Positions 1,480-10,860 of a stretch of 64,000 bases of DNA are shown here, piece after piece. The DNA lies in NCBI RefSeq assembly GCF_964213995.1, contig NW_027590137.1, positions 1,054,001-1,118,000 of the forward strand, read 5' to 3'. Numbering within the stretch: position 1 is the stretch's first letter; every line of letters begins with the position of its first letter. The translations under genes and the position numbers were made by a program. This DNA comes from Mustelus asterias (lineage: Eukaryota). The notes beneath the pieces are model-generated. The model was not told where the DNA came from. It ran no database searches and worked only from the letters and a program-made list of their open reading frames with translations.

Positions 1480-4400
1480 CACTGTAATGTTCACCATTTT
1501 ACATTCAAATCTGGGGGGGATAATGTTCATTGTTTTATTTTCGGGTCTGGGTGTGATAATGTTCTCTGTTTTATACTCGAGTCTGGGCTATAATATTCAC
1601 TCTTTTCTCTTCAGGTCTGGGTCAATAATCTTCACTGTTTTATATTCGGGTCTGGGGGGGAGAATGTTCACAGTTTTATATTCGGGTCTGGGGGATAATG
1701 TTCACTGTTTTATATTCGGGTCTGGGGGGGAGAATGTTCACTGTTTTATATTCGGGTCTGGGGGGGATAATGTTCACTGTTTTATATTCGGGTCTGGGGG
1801 ATAATGTTCACTGTTTTATATTCGGGTCTGGGGGGGATAATGTTCACTGTTTTATATTCGGGTCTGGGGGATAATGTTCACTGTTTTATATTCGGGTCTG
1901 GGGGGGATAATGTTCACTGTTTTATATTCGGGTCTGGGGGGGATAATGTTCACTGTTTTATATTCAAATCTGGGGGGGATAATGTTCACTGTTTTATATT
2001 CGGGTCTGAGGGATAATGTTCACTGTTTTATATTCGGTTCTGGGGGATAATGTTCACTGTTTTATATTCGGGTCTGGGGGATAATGTTCACTGTTTTATA
2101 TTCGGGTCTGGGGGGGATAATGTTCACTGTTTTATATTCGGGTCTGGGGGGGGGATAATGTTCACTGTTTTATATTCGGGTCTGGGGGGGATAATGTTCA
2201 CTGTTTTATATTCAGGTCTGGGGGGGATAATGTTCACTGTTTTATATTCAGGTCTGGGGGGGGATAATGTTCACTGTTTTATATTCGGGTATGGGGGGGG
2301 ATAATGTTCACTGTTTTATATTCAGGTCTGGGGGGGATAATGTTCACTGTTTTATATTCAGGTCTGGGGGGGATAATGTTCACTGTTTTATATTTGGGTC
2401 TGGGGGATAATGTTCACTGTTTTATATTCGGGTCTGGGCGGGGATAATGTTCACTGTTTTATATTCGGGTATGGGGGGGGATCATGTTCACTGTTTTATA
2501 TTCGGGTCTGGGGGGGGATAATGTTCACTGTTTTATATTCGGGTCTGGGGGATAATGTTCACTGTTTTATATTCGGGTCTGGGGGGATAATGTTCACTGT
2601 TTTATATTCGGGTCTGGGGGGGATAATGTTCACTGTTTTATATTCGGGTCTGGGGGGGGATAATGTTCACTGTTTTATATTCGGGTCTGGGGTGGATAAT
2701 GTTCACTGTTTTATATTCGGGTCTGGGGGATAATGTTCACTGTTTTATATTCGGGTCTGGGGGGATAATGTTCACTGTTTTATATTCGGGTCTGGGGGGG
2801 ATAATGTTCACTGTTTTATATTCGGGTCTGGGGGGGGATAATGTTCACTGTTTTATATTCGGGTCTGGGGGGGATAATGTTCACTGTTTTATATTCGGGT
2901 CTGGGGGGGATAATGTTCACTGTTTTATATTCAGGTCTGGGGGGGATAATGTTCACTGTTTTATATTCGGGTCTGGGGGATAATGTTCACTTTTATATTC
3001 GGGTCTGGGGGGGATAATGTTCACTGTTTTATATTTGGGTCTGGGGGATAATGTTCACTGTTTTATATTCGGGTCTGGGGGGGGATAATGTTCACTGTTT
3101 TATATTCGGGTATGGGGGGGGATAATGTTCACTGTTTTATATTCGGGTCTGGGGGGGATAATGTTCACTGTTTTATATTTGGGTCTGGGGGATAATGTTC
3201 ACTGTTTTATATTCGGGTCTGGGGGGGATAATGTTCACTGTTTTATATTCGGGTCTGGGGGGGATAATGTTCACTGTTTTATATTCGGGTCTGGGGGGGA
3301 TAATGTTCACTTTTATATTTGGGTCTGGGGGGGATAATGTTCACTGTTTTATATTCGGGTCTGGGGGGGATAATGTTCACTTTTATATTTGGGTCTGGGG
3401 GGGATAATGTTCACTGTTTTATATTCAGGTCTGGGGGAGAATGTTCACTGTTTTATATTCAGGTCTGGGGGAGAATGTTCACTGTTTTATATTCGGGTCT
3501 GGGAGATAATGTTCACTGTTTTATATTCAGGTCTGGGGGGGGATAATGTTCACTGTTTTATATTCGGGTCTGGGAGATAATGTTCACTGTTTTATATTCG
3601 GGTCTGGGGGATAATGTTCACTGTTTTATATTCGGGTCTGGGGGATAATGTTCTCTGTTTTATACTCGAGTCTGGGCTATAATATTCACTCTTTTCTCTT
3701 CAGGTCTGGGTCAATAATCTTCACTGTTTTATATTCGGGTCTGGGGGGGAGAATGTTCACTGTTTTATATTCGGGTCTGGGGGGGATAATGTTCACTGTT
3801 TTATATTTGGGTCTGGGGGATAATGTTCACTGTTTTATATTCGGGTCTGGGGGGGGATAATGTTCACTGTTTTATATTCGGGTATGGGGGGGGATAATGT
3901 TCACTGTTTTATATTCGGGTCTGGGGGGGATAATGTTCACTGTTTTATATTTGGGTCTGGGGGATAATGTTCACTGTTTTATATTCGGGTCTGGGGGGGA
4001 TAATGTTCACTGTTTTATATTCGGGTCTGGGGGGGATAATGTTCACTGTTTTATATTCGGGTCTGGGGGGGATAATGTTCACTTTTATATTTGGGTCTGG
4101 GGGGGATAATGTTCACTGTTTTATATTCGGGTCTGGGGGGGATAATGTTCACTGTTTTATATTTGGGTCTGGGGGGGATAATGTTCACTGTTTTATATTC
4201 AGGTCTGGGGGAGAATGTTCACTGTTTTATATTCAGGTCTGGGGGAGAATGTTCACTGTTTTATATTCGGGTCTGGGAGATAATGTTCACTGTTTTATAT
4301 TCAGGTCTGGGGGGGGATAATGTTCACTGTTTTATATTCGGGTCTGGGAGATAATGTTCACTGTTTTATATTCGGGTCTGGGGGATAATGTTCACTGTTT

Positions 4401-5215
4401 TATATTCGGGTCTGGGGGATAATGTTCTCTGTTTTATACTCGAGTCTGGGCTATAATATTCACTCTTTTCTCTTCAGGTCTGGGTCAATAATCTTCACTG
4501 TTTTATATTCGGGTCTGGGGGGGAGAATGTTCACTGTTTTATATTCGGGTCTGGGGGATAATGTTCACTGTTTTATATTCGGGTCTGGGGGGGAGAATGT
4601 TCACTGTTTTATATTCGGGTCTGGGGGGATAATGTTCACTGTTTTATATTCGGGTCTGGGGGGGGAATAATGTTCACTGTTTTATATTCGGGTCTGGGGG
4701 GGGATAATGTTCACTGTTTTATATTCAGGTCTCGGGGGGATAATGTTCACTGTTTTATATTCGGGTCTGGGGGGGGATAATGTTCACTGTTTTATATTCG
4801 GGTCTGGGGGATAATGTTCACTGTTTTATATTCGGGTCTGGGGGGGATAATGTTCACTGTTTTATATTCGGGTCTGGGGGATAATGTTCACTGTTTTATA
4901 TTCGGGTCTGGGGGGGATAATGTTCACTGTTTTATATTCGGGTCTGGGGGATAATGTTCACTGTTTTATATTCGGGTCTGGGGGGGATAATGTTCACTGT
5001 TTTATATTCGGGTCTGGGGGATAATGTTCACTGTTTTATATTCGGGTCTGGGGGGATAATGTTCACTGTTTTATATTCAGGTCTGGGGGGGATAATGTTC
5101 ACTGTTTTATATTTGGGTCTGGGGGGGATAATGTTCACTGTTTTATATTTGGGTCTGGGGGGGATAATGTTCACTGTTTTATATTTGGGTCTGGGGGGGA
5201 TAATGTTCACTGTCT
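1480..5215. repeat. Minisatellite, unit ATAATGTTCACTGTTTTATATTCGGGTCT+G(5-9), 34-38 bp, about 100 copies
   Basis: Directly visible tandem array. A variant block (ttctctgttttatactcgag...) recurs near 1560, 3650 and 4425. Confidence 0.98.
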
Positions 5216-6545
5216 GGGGTTTGTTAGCTCGGGTTGTTTCTGCCTCATGGTGCATTCCAGGCTGTCAGAGCTGTCATTAAAAGCCCTAATTTCCAGTCAG
5301 TGACTGAGTTGTCTCTGATGGGATGGAGAATCAGAGTGGGGGTAATGTGCTTCATGGACAGCGATGGGTGGGAGTGAGTATAAAATAAACCAGGACTACA
5401 CCAAGTAGTTTTGAGAACATTGAAACCATCACAAAATATCACAGCATCATGTTGGAAAACAGAATACTTTATCTGAATCTTTGATCAATTTTGTTTGATT
5501 CAATATTGTGAGTGACTTGTTGGATTGCTGGTTATTTTCTAAAGGCAGCTCAGCACCATCATTTTGACCATCAACTCGGCCCTGGTAACTGCTGCTTTTT
5601 TTCTGCACCTTCTGTTTTAATTTTAAGTGGAACCTTAATATTTGCTTGGTACACCGGCCGATTGATCTTTCCAGGGGTGAGTGTGTCTGAGAAATATACA
5701 ACTAAAAACATTCTCTATTTACCTCCTGCATTGCTGCAGTAAATATACATTGTTCTGACTCTGCCAGCAGGGCTGTGGAATTAATTGGATCGATCTTAAA
5801 GAGAGCCCGGCTGGGCAGGATAAAGTCACAGAGGTTTACAGCATGGAAATGTGAGCCAAATGGTTTCCATCTGTGATGTATCATTGCATAAAACAGAATA
5901 TTCAGTCTCAGGAGAAAGAAAGTGAAATAAACCAGTTTCTGGGGGATTTACCCAATCAGTATGAGCACCTTCAGGAGAGCGGGGGGAGGGGGGAAACCAG
6001 TGAGAAATGTTTTAAAAACTCAGGGTGTTCCCACAGGAGAGCACTGGTTTAAATCAATTTTAGAAATAGAGAATGGCAGTGCACAAATTCAGAGGAATGT
6101 ATTTTAAAAAATTAATTGATCTCAATTGCACAAGATAATTTTCTATTATGTCTTTGATTGACAATGGCGCTGTTAATTCCCAGGTGCCCCTGCGGTTGTG
6201 AACGTGCCCTATTCTTCCGGTGAAGCGGGCAGAGAGGGGAGTGATTTTTGGAGGGCAGAACTGGAAGATAAGATAAGCTGAATTTATTTTTACTTACTTT
6301 TTTCGGAGTTGTTTTTTTCCTGAGAAACAGGAAACTGGAAGTCAGCCGTAGGGAGACCTGGGACGTTTTTTTTTTGCCCACTAAATTTGAACGGGGAGGT
6401 AACCCGAGACTCTACACGTGTATAGAGTCTCCCACCCTCCCTCCTCCTCTAACCTAAAAAAAAAGACTCGGTGTGAGAGCAGGTGAGCTTTCTTTTTCTT
6501 TTTCTTCTTTTCTCTTTCGTTTATTAGTTCGGGAAGTTAGCAGGG

Positions 6546-7469
6546 ATGTCAGTGCAGGCAGTGCAATGTTCCTCCTGTGGGATGTGTGAGGTGAGGGACA
6601 CCATTAGTGTCCCAGCTGAGTACACCTGCAGGAAGTGCACCCAATTCCAGCTCCTTGAAGACCATGTTAGGGATCTGGAGTTGGAACTGGATGAACTCAG
6701 GATCATTCGGGAGGCAGAGACAGTTATAGATAAAAGCTACAGGGAGGTTCATACTCCTAGGAATGAGGATACTTGGGTGACTGTTAGAAAGGGTAAGAAG
6801 CAGACAGTGCAGCGATCCCCTGTGGCCGTTCCTCTGTATAACAAGTATACCGTTTTGGATACTGTTGGGGAGGGCGACTTACCAGGGGTAAGCCATGGGG
6901 TACAGATCTCTGGCACAGAGTCTGTCCCTGTTGCTCAGAAGGGAAAGGGGGGGAGGAGTAGAGCATTAGTCATTGGGAACTGCATAGTTAGGGGGACAGA
7001 TCGGAGATTCTGTGAGAGCGAGAGGGACTCGCGGCTGGTGTGTTGCCTCCCAGGTACCAGGGTCTTTGATGTCTCGGATCGTGTTTTCAAGATCCTTAAG
7101 GGGGAAGGGGACCAGCCCCAAGTTGTGGTCCACACAGGCACCAATGACATAGGTAGGAAAAGAGATGGGGATATAAGGCAGAAATTCAGGGAGTTAGGGT
7201 GGAAGCTTAGAGCGAGAACAAATAGAGTTGTTATCTCTGGTTTGTTACCCGTGCCACGTGCTAGTGAGGAGAGGAATAGGGAGAGAGAGCAGTTGAACAC
7301 GTGGCTACAGGAATGGTGCAGGAGGGAAGGATTTAGATACCTGGATAATTGGCGCTCATTCTGGGGTAGGTGGGACCTCTACAAACGGGATGGTCTTCAC
7401 CTGGACCAGAGGGGTACTAATATCCTGGGGGGGAAATTTGCTAATGCTCTTCGGGAGGGTTTAAACTAA
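6546..7469 (+). CDS. CR1 ORF1p: zinc finger/leucine zipper plus SGNH-like esterase domain
   Basis: CxxC...CxxC followed by heptad leucines; esterase blocks VIGNCIVR (GDS-like), HTGTND and DGLHL; ends REGLN*. Confidence 0.92.
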   Translation: MSVQAVQCSSCGMCEVRDTISVPAEYTCRKCTQFQLLEDHVRDLELELDELRIIREAETVIDKSYREVHTPRNEDTWVTVRKGKKQTVQRSPVAVPLYNKYTVLDTVGEGDLPGVSHGVQISGTESVPVAQKGKGGRSRALVIGNCIVRGTDRRFCESERDSRLVCCLPGTRVFDVSDRVFKILKGEGDQPQVVVHTGTNDIGRKRDGDIRQKFRELGWKLRARTNRVVISGLLPVPRASEERNREREQLNTWLQEWCRREGFRYLDNWRSFWGRWDLYKRDGLHLDQRGTNILGGKFANALREGLN

Positions 7470-10294
7470 TTCGGCAGGGGGGTGGGAACCTGGATTTCTG
7501 CTCCAGTGTACAGGAGGATGTGAGTGGTGAGGTGATGAATAAGATTTCAAGGTCGCAGGAGTGTACCGGCAGGCAGGAAGGTGCTTTGAAGTGTGTCTAC
7601 TTCAATGCCAGGAGCATCCGGAATAACGTGGGTGAACTTGCAGCATGGGCTGGTACCTGGGACTTCGATGTTGTGGCCATTTCGGGGACATGGATAGAGC
7701 AGGGACAGGAATGGTTGTTGCAGGTTCCGGGGTTTAGATGTTTCAGTAAGATCAGGGAAGGTGGTAAAAGAGGAGGAGGTGCGGCATTGTTAGTCAAGGA
7801 CAGTATTACGGTGGCCGAAAGGATGTTTGATGAGGACTCGTCTACTGAGGTAGTATGGGCTGAGGTTAGAAACAGGAAAGGAGAGGTCACCCTGATGGGA
7901 GTTTTCTATAGGTCTCCGAAAAGTTCCAGAGATGTAGAGGAAAAGATTGCAAAGATGATTCTGGATAGGAGCGAAAGTAACAGGGCAGTTGTTATGGGGG
8001 ACTTTAACTTTACAAATATTGACTGGAAATGCTATAGTTCGAGTACTTTAGATGGGTCAGTTTTTGTCCAATGTGTGCAGGAGGGTTTGCTGACACAGTA
8101 TGTAGATAGACCAACAAGAGGCGAGGCCACATTGGATTTGGTACTGGGTAATGAACCAGGCCAGGTGTTAGATTTGGAGGTAGGTGAACACTTTGGTGAT
8201 AGTGACCACAATTCGGTTACGTTTACTTTAGCAATGGAAAGGGATAGGTATACACCGCAGGGCAAGTATTATAGCTGGGGGAAAGGAAATTATGATGCGA
8301 TTAGGCGAGATTTAGGATGCACAGGATGGGGAAGAAATCTGTAGGGGATGGGCACAATTGAAATGTGGAGCTTGTTCAATGAACAGCTACTGCGTGTCCT
8401 TGATAAGTATGTACCTGTCAGGCAAGGAGGTAGTGGTCGAGCGGGGGAACCGTGGTTTACTAAAGAAGTTGAATCTCTTGTGAAGAGGAAGAAGGAGACT
8501 TATGTAAAGATGAGACGTGAAGGCTCAGTAAGGGCGCTTGAGAGTTACAAGTTCGCCAGGAAGGAGCTGAAGAGAGAGCTAAGAAGAGCCAGGAGGGGAC
8601 ATGAGAAGTCTTTGGCAGGTAGGATCAAGGAAAATCCTAACGCTTTCTACAGGTATGTCAGGAATAAAAGAATGACTAGGGTAAGATTAGGGCCAGTCAA
8701 GGACAGTAGTGGGAAGTTGTGCGTGGAGTCTGAAGAGATAGGAGAGGCGCTAAATGAATATTTTTCGTCAGTATTCACACAGGAAAAAGACAATGTTGTC
8801 GAAGAGAATACTGAGATACAGGCTATTGGACTAGACGGGATTGAGGTTCATAAGGAGGAGGTGTTAGCAATTCTGGAAAGTGTGAAAATAGATAAGTCCC
8901 CTGGGCCGGATGGGATTTATCCTAGCATTCGCTGGGAAGCTAGGGAGGAGATTGCAGAGCCTTTGGCTTTGATTTTTATGTCATTGTCTACAGGAATAGT
9001 GCCAGAAGACTGGAGAATAGCAAATGTTGTCCCCTTGTTCAAGAAGGGGAGTAGAGACAACCCTGGTAATTATAGACCAGTGAGCCTTACTTCTGTTGTG
9101 GGCAAAGTTTTGGAAAGGATTAGAAGAGATAGGATTTATAATCATCTCGAAATTAATAATTTGATTAGGGATAGTCAGCACGGTTTTGTGAAGGGAAGGT
9201 CGTGCTTCACAAACCTTATTGAGTTCTTTGAGAAGGTGACCAAAGAGGTGGATGAGGGTAAAGCAGTTGATGTGGTGTTTATGGATTTAAGTAAAGCATT
9301 TGATAAAGTTCCCCACGGTAGGCTATTGCAGAAAATACAGAGGCATGGGATTGAGGGTGATTTTGAGATTTGGATCAGAAATTGGCTAGCTGTAAGAAGA
9401 CAGAGGGTGGTGGTTGATGGGAAATGTTCATCCTGGAGTTCAGTTACTAGTGTACCGCAAGGATCTGTTTTGGGGCCACTTTTGTTTGTCATTTTTATAA
9501 ATGGTCTGGATGAGGGCGTAGAAGGATGGGTTAGTAAATTTGCGGATGACACTAAAGTCGGTGGAGTTGAGGACAGTGTGGAAGGATGTTGCAGGTTACA
9601 GAGGGACATAGATAAGCTGCAGTGCTGGGCTGAGAGGTGGCAAATGGAGTTTGATGTGGAAAAGTGTGAGGTGATTCACTTTGGAAGGAGTAACAGGAAT
9701 ACAGAGTACTGGGCTAATGGTAAGATACTTGGTAGTGTGGATGAGCAGAGAGATCTCGATGTCCATGTGCATAGATCCCTGAAAGTTGGCACCCAGATTG
9801 ATAGGGTTGCTAAGAAGGCGTACAGTGTGTTAGCTTTTATTAGAAGAGGGATTGAGTTTCGGAGCCATGCTGTCATGTTGCAGCTGTACAAAACTCTGGT
9901 GCGGCCGCACTTGGACTATTGCGTACAGTTCTGGTCGCCGCATTATAGGAAGGATGTGGAAGCATTGGAAAGGGTGCAGAGGAGATTTACCAGGATGTTG
10001 CCTGGTATGGTGGGAAGGTCTTATGAGGAAAGGCTGAGTGACTTGAGGCTTTTTTCGTTGGAGAGAAGAAGTTTAAGAGGTGACTTAATAGAGGCATTCA
10101 AGATGATCAGAGGATTAGATAAGTTGGACAGTGTAAGCCTTTTTCCTCGGATGATGATGGCTAGCACGAGGGGGCATAGCTTTAAATTGAGGGGTGATAG
10201 ATATAGATCAGATGTCAGAGGTAGGTTCTTTACTCAGAGAGTAGTAAGGGTGTGGAATGCCCTGCCTGCAACAGTAGTGGACTCGTCAACATGA
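7466..10294 (+). pseudogene. CR1 ORF2 (APE endonuclease + reverse transcriptase) with an in-frame TAG at 8342-8344 and a probably premature TGA at 10292
   Basis: YFNARSI, GDFN and SDH APE motifs; [13 protein letters not shown] and FADD RT motifs. ORFs 7520-8344 and 8348-10294 are in the same frame. Confidence 0.95.
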
Positions 10295-10439
10295 AGGGCA
10301 TTTAAAGGGTCATTGGATAAACATATGGATGAGATTGGAATAGTGTAGGTTGGATGGGTTTAGATTCGTTTCACAGGTCGGTGCAACATTGAGGGCCGAA
10401 GGGCCTGTACTGCGCTGTAATGTTCTATGTTCTATAGTC

Positions 10440-10860
10440 ATTCCACAGGAGCCTATTGCGCAGGCGCAGTGCTGTATCTGGGGCATGCGCAGTGTCACTG
10501 CTCAGAGTCCTGAATGCGGGAGACGCTTTTTTCAGCGGGTGAGTCGGTTGGGCTGCGGGAGAAGTGGAGCCGGGAGTTGGGGTAGGGAGGGAGCGAGCGG
10601 AGGCTTCACAAACATCCGCTGTAGGCTGCACGGCCCGAATCAGACCCTGCAGGTCCCGGGTTTACAGCTCCCAGGCTTTTATCTCGGGAACAGGCCCCGG
10701 TTATCGGCCGCCATCTTGTTTCAGCGGGGAAGGAGGGCACATGCGCTGCTGTCTGTGACGGGTCACAATGGGCGTGGTTTCGGGGGCTGGTTCAGAACCT
10801 CTATCTTCAGAGGGACAATAGGTAGCAGGGCGCATGCGCAGCTATCCAAGAACATCGGAA
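10440..10860 (+). promoter_or_regulatory. CpG-island promoter/first exon of the ZNF gene at 14.5 kb
   Basis: NRF1-type TGCGCAGGCGCA and GCGCATGCGCA, YY1-type GCCGCCATCTT near 10708, and a donor-like GGTGAGT near 10548. Confidence 0.7.

Follow-up and report, generated by a model that had tools for sequence, protein, structure and literature searches.

Esterase-type CR1 LINEs, members of a very abundant group of vertebrate mobile elements, probably produce an ORF1-ORF2 fusion protein that joins the endonuclease and reverse transcriptase (RT) to the ORF1 product through programmed -1 ribosomal frameshifting, a reading to which we assign a probability of about 0.8 on comparative sequence grounds. 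The copy described here lies in the window, i.e. the 64,000-nucleotide stretch of Mustelus asterias DNA that was analysed (Table 1). The original prediction of a -1 shift at U_UUA_AAC yielding an esterase-APE-RT fusion passed the comparative tests, while the stimulator proposed with it is unsupported. The element is assigned to the esterase-type CR1 LINEs by the homology of its ORF1 and by the likeness of its junction, judged by eye, to named shark CR1 consensus sequences. Its ORF1 contains an SGNH esterase domain (PF13472, E 4.1e-12, above the cut-off) and has homologues in sharks, rays and birds, and its ORF2 contains APE and RT domains (PF03372, PF14529 and PF00078), with no other families listed. 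It ends in short repeats, and 3'-terminal short tandem repeats are a feature of CR1 LINEs. The CR1 families of PMC13343379 and PMC4120745 likewise combine Cys motifs and an esterase in ORF1 with APE and RT domains in ORF2, and an ORF1 of type IVB, CR1 subgroup 7, characterizes the esterase-type vertebrate CR1 (PMC4120745).

Table 1. Features of the CR1 element and its ORF1/ORF2 junction, in window coordinates
Feature	Position	Strand	Remarks
CR1 ORF1	6546..7469	+	307 aa; N-terminal Cys motifs, coiled-coil-like segment, SGNH/GDSL esterase; C-terminus EGLN*
Overlapping heptamer G_GGT_TTA (GGGTTTA)	7457..7463	+	present in window; not conserved across families
Slippery heptamer T_TTA_AAC, predicted -1 shift site	7460..7466	+	ORF1 phase; junction conservation
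Open -1-frame linker	7466..7588	+	41 codons, shift site to APE motif KCVYFNARS; reading of frame
ORF1 stop TAA	7467..7469	+	adjoins heptamer; elsewhere TAG or TAA, rarely TGA
Conserved GGGGG-NN-GGG block, candidate 3' stimulator	7477..7486	+	10 nt after heptamer
Proposed hairpin	7490..7506	+	copy-specific; rejected as general stimulator
In-frame ATG	7535..7537	+	18 codons before APE motif; family-specific
ORF2 body, APE then reverse transcriptase	7589..10348	+	PF03372 E 5.7e-17, PF00078 E 1.6e-33
Short TTCTATG-type repeats, 3' end of element	about 10417..10436	+	by eye from sequence

The ORF1 that opens at ATG 6546 ends GAG GGT TTA AAC TAA, and direct reading of positions 7457-7469 confirmed the predicted pair of overlapping heptamers, both in X_XXY_YYZ phase, the stop codon and the -1 phase. 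The -1 frame, which reads CTA ATT CGG CAG GGG, is open from 7445 to a TAG at 8342; it runs across the APE domain with ATG 7535 in frame, again as had been claimed. The TTTAAAC heptamer goes beyond chance because its place and phase are conserved: it lies near the profile-projected end of ORF1 in 158 of 168 distinct CR1 junctions, counts that are not independent as the lineages are related, and a stop codon directly follows it in 148 of these 158 (TAG 108, TAA 39, TGA 1). The expected conservation of heptamer, stop and -1 phase is thereby upheld. The heptamer is also present in five of six junctions drawn from 600 kb sampled without regard to the element and in 8/9 bird-type contigs. The G_GGT_TTA heptamer failed to generalize, the codon before the Leu being a Gly codon in 0.38 of the family weight.

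We compared codon usage in 19 family groups, using as anchor a profile that lacks the last 11 residues; most loci had been retrieved with LN-terminated queries, a bias on the amino acids and not on the codons. This revealed that the heptamer is conserved at synonymous sites: 1) the terminal Leu codon is TTA at a frequency of 1.0, versus 0.11 elsewhere; 2) the terminal Asn codon is AAC at 1.0, versus 0.32 elsewhere; 3) the third base of the codon before TTA is T at 0.99, versus 0.26 elsewhere, though the amino acid encoded there varies; 4) third-position conservation within the heptamer is 0.99, 1.00 and 0.94, and that of 29 upstream third positions has a mean of 0.60 and a maximum of 0.87. At the protein level, ORF1 ends in LN in 40/69 and 95/120 homologues among the matches listed. 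By eye, 18 of 23 places in the portion of a published consensus library that was covered are junction-like, and the junctions in that portion come from alligator, crocodile, lizard, frog, coelacanth, bowfin, halosaur, chimaera, rays and sharks. A scan of viral contigs returned no relatives, and one of prokaryote contigs returned two weak matches, both without the junction.

The linkers between the ORF1 stop and the APE domain range from 95 to 233 nt and are not alignable between families. Nevertheless, 8 of the 9 families with a shared modal linker length have that length in -1 phase, and the linkers of the ninth are removed from a -1-phase length by two distinct single-base deletions. In modal copies the -1 frame can be read through, and the other two frames are mostly closed (e.g. 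28/0/0 of 32, 20/0/0 of 21 and 17/0/0 of 17 copies), and the anticipated absence of stops up to ORF2 held in nearly all families. The summed shuffle probability for the open linkers, log10 -16.9, is not treated as a P value, since open copies served as representatives and the lineages are related. On the upstream side the -1 frame is usually closed by a stop 3-15 nt before the heptamer. Against frameshifting, one family with four modal copies has frame 0 open in three and the -1 frame in one, and another count gives 3/6 open. Further, 39 of 153 copies do not keep the -1 phase; we read these as decayed, which is demonstrated for some of the 39 only.

The best surviving alternative, which we consider improbable, is termination followed by reinitiation: ribosomes would restart near the ORF1 stop, either at an AUG (TAATG, TAG-NN-ATG or ATG 7535) or on a codon other than AUG, with the conserved bases acting as a signal for the coupling. 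Such a reinitiation or stop-start route has been described for SART1 and L1 (PMC3894237, PMC2881922), and L1 ORF2 initiation is thought to be independent of the presence of an AUG (PMC5009743). In CR1 an overlapping, SART1-like TAATG in the ORF2 frame occurs in one of 14 shark lineages and in ScyCan_CR1-1a, the window having TAATT at this place. An in-frame linker ATG in 5/14 shark lineages and an ATG two codons beyond the shift point in 5/9 bird-type junctions likewise count against frameshifting. ATG 7535 itself is kept in 17/17 modal copies of the window's family, and an AUG-independent restart right at the stop would predict an open linker just as frameshifting does. However, in 9 of the 14 shark lineages the frame reaches the APE motif without an ATG, the first Met of these lineages lying most commonly 20-134 codons into the APE domain, and elsewhere the position of the linker ATG varies with the lineage (codon 1, 18, 23, 25 or 46). 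ATG 7535, noted in the original prediction, is family-specific: the sister lineage L113 has TTG at the matching place and most other lineages also lack it. A conserved ORF2 AUG following a non-coding spacer, as in L1, was not found in these junctions, the spacer being an open coding frame. Moreover, the heptamer is kept also in lineages that have an ATG, and reinitiation does not predict a perfect in-phase X_XXY_YYZ that includes the T before TTA. Both frameshifting and reinitiation could operate in some CR1 lineages.

It is very unlikely that there is no recoding signal at all and that Leu-Asn-stop is kept for the sake of the protein, with codons and phase retained by descent or chance. The lineages do share a common ancestry, and TTTAAAC is not a rare word, occurring 24 times in the 64-kb window (10 on the plus and 14 on the minus strand). 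Yet other well-kept Leu and Gly columns nearby use 3-4 codons, the lineages have a median identity of about 42% over the compared protein stretch, with unalignable linkers, and those without an ATG would be left with no route to ORF2 translation; the codon-level test largely refutes this reading. We give as little credence to an altered RNA, in which a donor-like CAG/GTRAG in the 5' UTR is spliced to an acceptor CAG/G (7475-7478) or a frame is restored when the polymerase slips on the G run: donor-like sites are seen by eye upstream of ORF1 in several families, CAG/G is present in many shark families and the G run differs in length between copies, but several families have no AG there, a pyrimidine tract is absent, splicing would supply no AUG, the G run lies 3' of the ORF1 stop so that the frames cannot be fused there, and the heptamer would remain unexplained. 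Among the matches listed in contigs of 8 runs (the kinds of run being guessed, and 6482-6519 being skipped as a repeat) there was no GT..AG joint into the junction, a result that weighs neither for nor against splicing.

Under programmed frameshifting, most ribosomes would terminate at the stop codon of ORF1, giving free ORF1p of 307 aa. In a minority, the tRNA-Leu on UUA and the tRNA-Asn on AAC would re-pair on UUU and AAA, with CUA read next, and these ribosomes would yield, at a low fixed ratio, a protein of about 1,270 aa with an esterase-linker-APE-RT arrangement. A stable 3' stem-loop or pseudoknot, 5-9 nt downstream, is usual at canonical -1 sites. The CR1 site had been called canonical in this sense, as a heptamer with a pseudoknot, and this does not stand: no conserved 3' stem-loop or pseudoknot was detected in the window folds, in 19 family copies or in 14 same-family copies, and hence the efficiency of frameshifting could be low. 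The letters of the proposed hairpin are indeed present (CTGGA 7490-7494, TTTCTGC 7495-7501, TCCAG 7502-7506), but the window does not fold better than its shuffles (z of -0.37 over 7467-7520 and of +0.28 over 7467-7540) and the hairpin is not its minimum-energy fold. Of 14 copies of this family that were inserted independently, three have a perfect CTGGA/TCCAG stem and none has the TTTCTGC loop; other families lack both. A hairpin or pseudoknot spanning 7474-7506 was accordingly rejected; its geometry would also leave 0 bases between the two 3' strands.

The downstream GGGGG-NN-GGG block has G at 0.90-0.99 at its eight positions in the family comparison, and its third positions stay G; related contigs cease matching at 7486-7491. 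Fold z values of this region range from -1.89 to +1.78 in 19 family copies, with no conserved fold, and folding predicts a G-quadruplex in 6/18 copies, the window copy not being among them. A C-rich tract at 6422-6445 pairs with the block in the window's family (-27.6 kcal/mol) and similar tracts exist in two other families; a long-range partner was rejected, as none is common across families. We regard the block as a candidate stimulator of a non-pseudoknot kind, with a putative role. In what is the weaker part of the model, the ribosomal pause may be due to the stop codon together with the G block, which would bind a protein or adopt a non-canonical structure, and not to a pseudoknot. The fuller proposal is tentative, and we would place it somewhat below even odds: that in jawed-vertebrate CR1 the U_UUA_AAC-stop fusion covalently ties the esterase to the RT, and is stimulated by an element of a new kind, an unstructured GGGGG-NN-GGG 10 nt downstream that either forms a G-quadruplex or is bound by ORF1p itself or by a host protein that recognizes G tracts. 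Natural G-quadruplex stimulators of frameshifting were anticipated but not known as of 2016 (PMC5009743).

The CR1 heptamer is identical to the U_UUA_AAC of the coronavirus (IBV) 1a/1b junction, which is listed with the most shift-prone heptamers for mammalian ribosomes (PMC5009743), and as in retroviral gag-pol a structural protein lies upstream of a polymerase in the -1 frame. Unlike these systems, CR1 conserves no 3' pseudoknot or stem-loop, its stop adjoins the heptamer, and the domain search of the window element found no protease domain able to cleave the fusion. In the PRRSV nsp2 frameshift the motif CCCANCUCC, 11 nt 3' of the shift site, is bound by nsp1-beta and PCBP (PMC5009743). It resembles the CR1 block, at 10 nt, as a low-complexity motif in spacing alone, for the CR1 motif is G-rich and that of PRRSV C-rich, the heptamers differ, and a binding protein in CR1 is a candidate only. 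Among APE-type non-LTR elements, the Dictyostelium TRE5-A and TRE3-A, of a different clade and with a different ORF1, are stated in a figure legend of PMC5911963 to need a -1 frameshift for ORF2, and by this precedent frameshifting in CR1 would not be categorically new. SART1, with its UAAUG coupling, and mammalian L1, with reinitiation, share with CR1 a bicistronic LINE RNA and a low ORF2 output. They make a separate ORF2p, whereas the CR1 ORF2 mostly has no AUG and overlaps a conserved slippery site.

Our literature search found no description of -1 frameshifting at the CR1 ORF1/ORF2 junction, and the 1997 accounts of chicken and turtle CR1 (reportedly the original ones, by Haas and by Kajikawa) may mention the overlap. 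The word "frameshift" occurs 0 times in the searchable portions of the main texts of PMC4120745 and PMC13343379 and of the supplement of the latter, and the relevant portion of PMC3894237 treats LINE ORF2 translation as an open question, listing reinitiation, IRES and stop-start coupling and not frameshifting. If the frameshift reading is correct, a gag-pol strategy would be at work in a LINE clade that is dominant in sharks, reptiles and birds, the active CR1 enzyme would carry the ORF1 esterase, ORF2 annotations that begin at the first ATG would be wrong, and the native junction would have to be built into any engineered assay of CR1 retrotransposition. The window copy itself is a dead relic that still bears the slip signal: its ORF2 is interrupted by TAG at 8342-8344 and TGA at 10292-10294, and its ORF1 has GNC at the site where its relatives have GDS.

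The CR1 copy in the window encodes a GDSL esterase in ORF1 and endonuclease and RT domains in ORF2 (Pfam), and the closest named protein to its ORF1 (98%) comes from Mustelus asterias. Both heptamers proved to lie at the ORF1 end in the positions and phases originally described, and the -1 frame is open as claimed; it runs from 7445 to 8341 with the APE domain inside it. This copy is dead: its ORF2 is interrupted by stops at 8342 and 10292, its esterase motif reads GNC instead of GDS, and its APE has SGTW where most family members have SETW. The best 24 DNA matches in its own genome, the window itself among these, are 99-100% identical, and the three of them whose flanks were inspected have common upstream DNA; because of this shared DNA and identity, the near-identical copies look like a segmental repeat and not fresh insertions. 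The 8342 stop is common to 22 of the 23 near-identical copies read at that position. The dead CR1 (window 5900-10440 and loci L001-L024) seems to be part of a large repeat, of which no fewer than 24 copies, 99-100% identical, are spread over several small or mid-sized contigs (C71, C87, C89, C96, C105, C108, C118 and others). As the window copy is dead and its near-identical copies are repeat-like, the junction was tested on independent families.

ORF1 and slippery heptamers of the window CR1 copy
Feature	Position	Strand	Remark
CR1 ORF1, 307 aa	6546-7469	+	ends GAG GGT TTA AAC TAA
G_GGT_TTA heptamer, in phase	7457-7463	+	read from sequence
T_TTA_AAC heptamer, in phase	7460-7466	+	read from sequence

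Four queries against the own genome (3.68 Gb) gave 140 loci, to which 60 further listed places, 60 evenly spaced 10-kb stretches and 38 metagenome loci were added as junction sources; stop positions were projected by an ORF1-tail profile without its last 11 residues. Removal of identical junctions reduced 217 candidates to 168, and since each search scored only the best 126-150 of 45,000-67,000 candidates, these junctions are few and lean towards well-preserved copies. In this sample TTTAAAC lies between -45 and +15 relative to the projected stop in 158/168 distinct junctions (own genome 150/159, bird-type contigs 8/9; unselected stretches 5/6), and the next codon is TAG in 108, TAA in 39, TGA in one and a sense codon in 10. 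A codon-level comparison of 138 copies in 19 equally weighted family groups, from which copies carrying a stop or shift among their final 32 codons had been removed, showed that: 1) the third-codon positions of the heptamer have conservation values of 0.99, 1.00 and 0.94, whereas 29 third positions farther upstream average 0.60 and reach 0.87 at most. 2) The terminal Leu is TTA and the terminal Asn AAC in every case, these codons having frequencies of 0.11 and 0.32 elsewhere. 3) The codon preceding Leu-Asn ends in T, while its amino acid varies. Judged by these synonymous sites, the heptamer is under selection as an RNA sequence and not for the protein, and the predicted in-phase conservation at the ORF1 end is borne out. 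At the protein level, a C-terminal LN occurs in 40/69 homologues of the window ORF1 and in 95/120 among the matches listed for a bird-type ORF1; many homologues lacking it seem to be incomplete or wrongly predicted, and other endings are seen in four distant ORF1s from fish (25-34% identity). Within the first 400 characters per cell, the supplementary consensus library of PMC13343379 holds at least 23 places with TTTAAAC plus a stop, of which, by eye, 5 are unrelated and 18 look like ORF1 ends, from alligator, crocodile, bearded dragon, bullfrog, coelacanth, bowfin, halosaur, chimaera, rays and sharks. The junction feature is genuine, and its conservation extends over the jawed vertebrates.

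The start of APE could be located in 153 copies; the linker, from the ORF1 stop to the APE start motif, is in -1 phase in 114 of them, +1 in 23 and frame 0 in 16. The commonest linker lengths of eight families (122, 122, 128, 131, 140, 167, 182 and 218 nt) are all in -1 phase; the mode of a ninth, 232 nt (two copies), represents two different single-base deletions from a 233-nt form. Lineages seen once or twice add -1-phase linkers of 95, 107, 116, 137, 182 and 185 nt, and five damaged singleton lineages are out of phase, without the heptamer or closed by stops. In most families the modal copies have the -1 frame open and the other two blocked, with one exception (-1 open in 1/4 modal copies, frame 0 in 3/4). 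Phase and openness of the linker are thus conserved as anticipated. The CR1 junction is, with a probability that we place at about 0.8, a site of -1 frameshifting, and would work like a gag-pol frameshift site minus the canonical 3' RNA structure.

Termination-reinitiation, as in SART1 and L1, is unlikely to be the main route to ORF2. Fourteen shark lineages have a copy in -1 phase, and 9 of them lack an in-frame ATG ahead of the APE motif; in these 9 the first Met most often lies 20-134 codons inside the APE domain, where a start would remove the first APE motifs. The other five have linker ATGs at differing positions, scattered on a tree in which 8 of 15 inner branches are weakly supported; the window ATG at 7535, originally offered as a reinitiation start, is indeed in the ORF2 frame, and the sister lineage L113 has TTG at the matching place. 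Reinitiation draws support from an ATG two codons past the shift point in 5/9 bird-type junctions and from one shark lineage with a TAATG stop-start overlap, its ATG in the ORF2 frame, like SART1 (available text of PMC3894237). Further, L1 is thought to initiate ORF2 independently of AUG (available text of PMC5009743), so that an ATG-less open linker is by itself compatible with reinitiation too. However, lineages with TAATG or a linker ATG retain the heptamer, and a perfect in-phase slippery heptamer is unexplained by reinitiation. Frameshifting and reinitiation may both operate in some lineages. Some linkers (loci L131-L133, L191, L197) seem to combine sequence from two families, such as the 5' part of one with the APE start of another, suggesting recombination or template switching within the linker.

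Of the canonical site in the original prediction, the in-phase heptamer stood but the 3' RNA structure, a hairpin or pseudoknot stimulator, failed: folding gave z of -0.37 and +0.28 in the window and none under -1.9 across families, and independent copies of the window's family kept a perfect stem in 3/14 and the loop in 0/14. A GGGGG-NN-GGG block at 7477-7486, 10 nt past the heptamer, has G conserved at 0.90-0.99, and within it the third base of each ORF2-frame codon remains G, also at codons that differ in their amino acid; matches to contigs of related organisms end at 7486-7491. No pairing partner of this block common to the families was found, and a G-quadruplex is predicted for it only occasionally. 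Its spacing from the shift site resembles that of the protein-bound motif of PRRSV (available text of PMC5009743), which we take only as a lead. At 6405-6445 an inverted repeat, GAGACTCT...AGAGTCTC, precedes a C-rich tract complementary to the G block in the window's family, and similar tracts are present in two other families.

-1 frameshifting is already stated for Dictyostelium non-LTR elements, and a figure legend in the available part of PMC5911963 says that TRE5-A and TRE3-A need it. For CR1 no description was found in the full-text literature searched, a scope of non-subscription papers including the available parts of PMC3894237, PMC13343379, PMC4120745, PMC2734521, PMC2881922, PMC4255032, PMC11835228 and PMC11818727; that of PMC5009743 yielded no mention of CR1. 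Repbase notes, and the descriptions of chicken and turtle CR1 reportedly published in 1997, may mention an ORF1/ORF2 overlap.

Directly 5' of the ORF1 ATG, 6480-6529 carries a splice-donor-like CAG|GTGAG and then a pyrimidine tract with TAG at its end, which may be a U1 site or a short intron in the 5' UTR; several other families likewise have donor-like sites ahead of ORF1. Directly after the CR1 3' end, a GC-rich, CpG-containing stretch (10460-10850) with repeated GCGCATGCGC-like words, which we take to be an NRF1-like motif, looks like a promoter. A shark-type CR1 ORF1 protein (P0008, 71% identity) is labelled a Pseudomonas aeruginosa SGNH hydrolase at NCBI, probably through host contamination of the record. 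The window further contains a long G/T-skewed minisatellite (about 2000-5250, units of roughly 33-35 nt), numerous 3' CR1 fragments, and a second CR1 of another family on the minus strand (45960-43144), 5'-truncated inside its linker and without ORF1 or junction.
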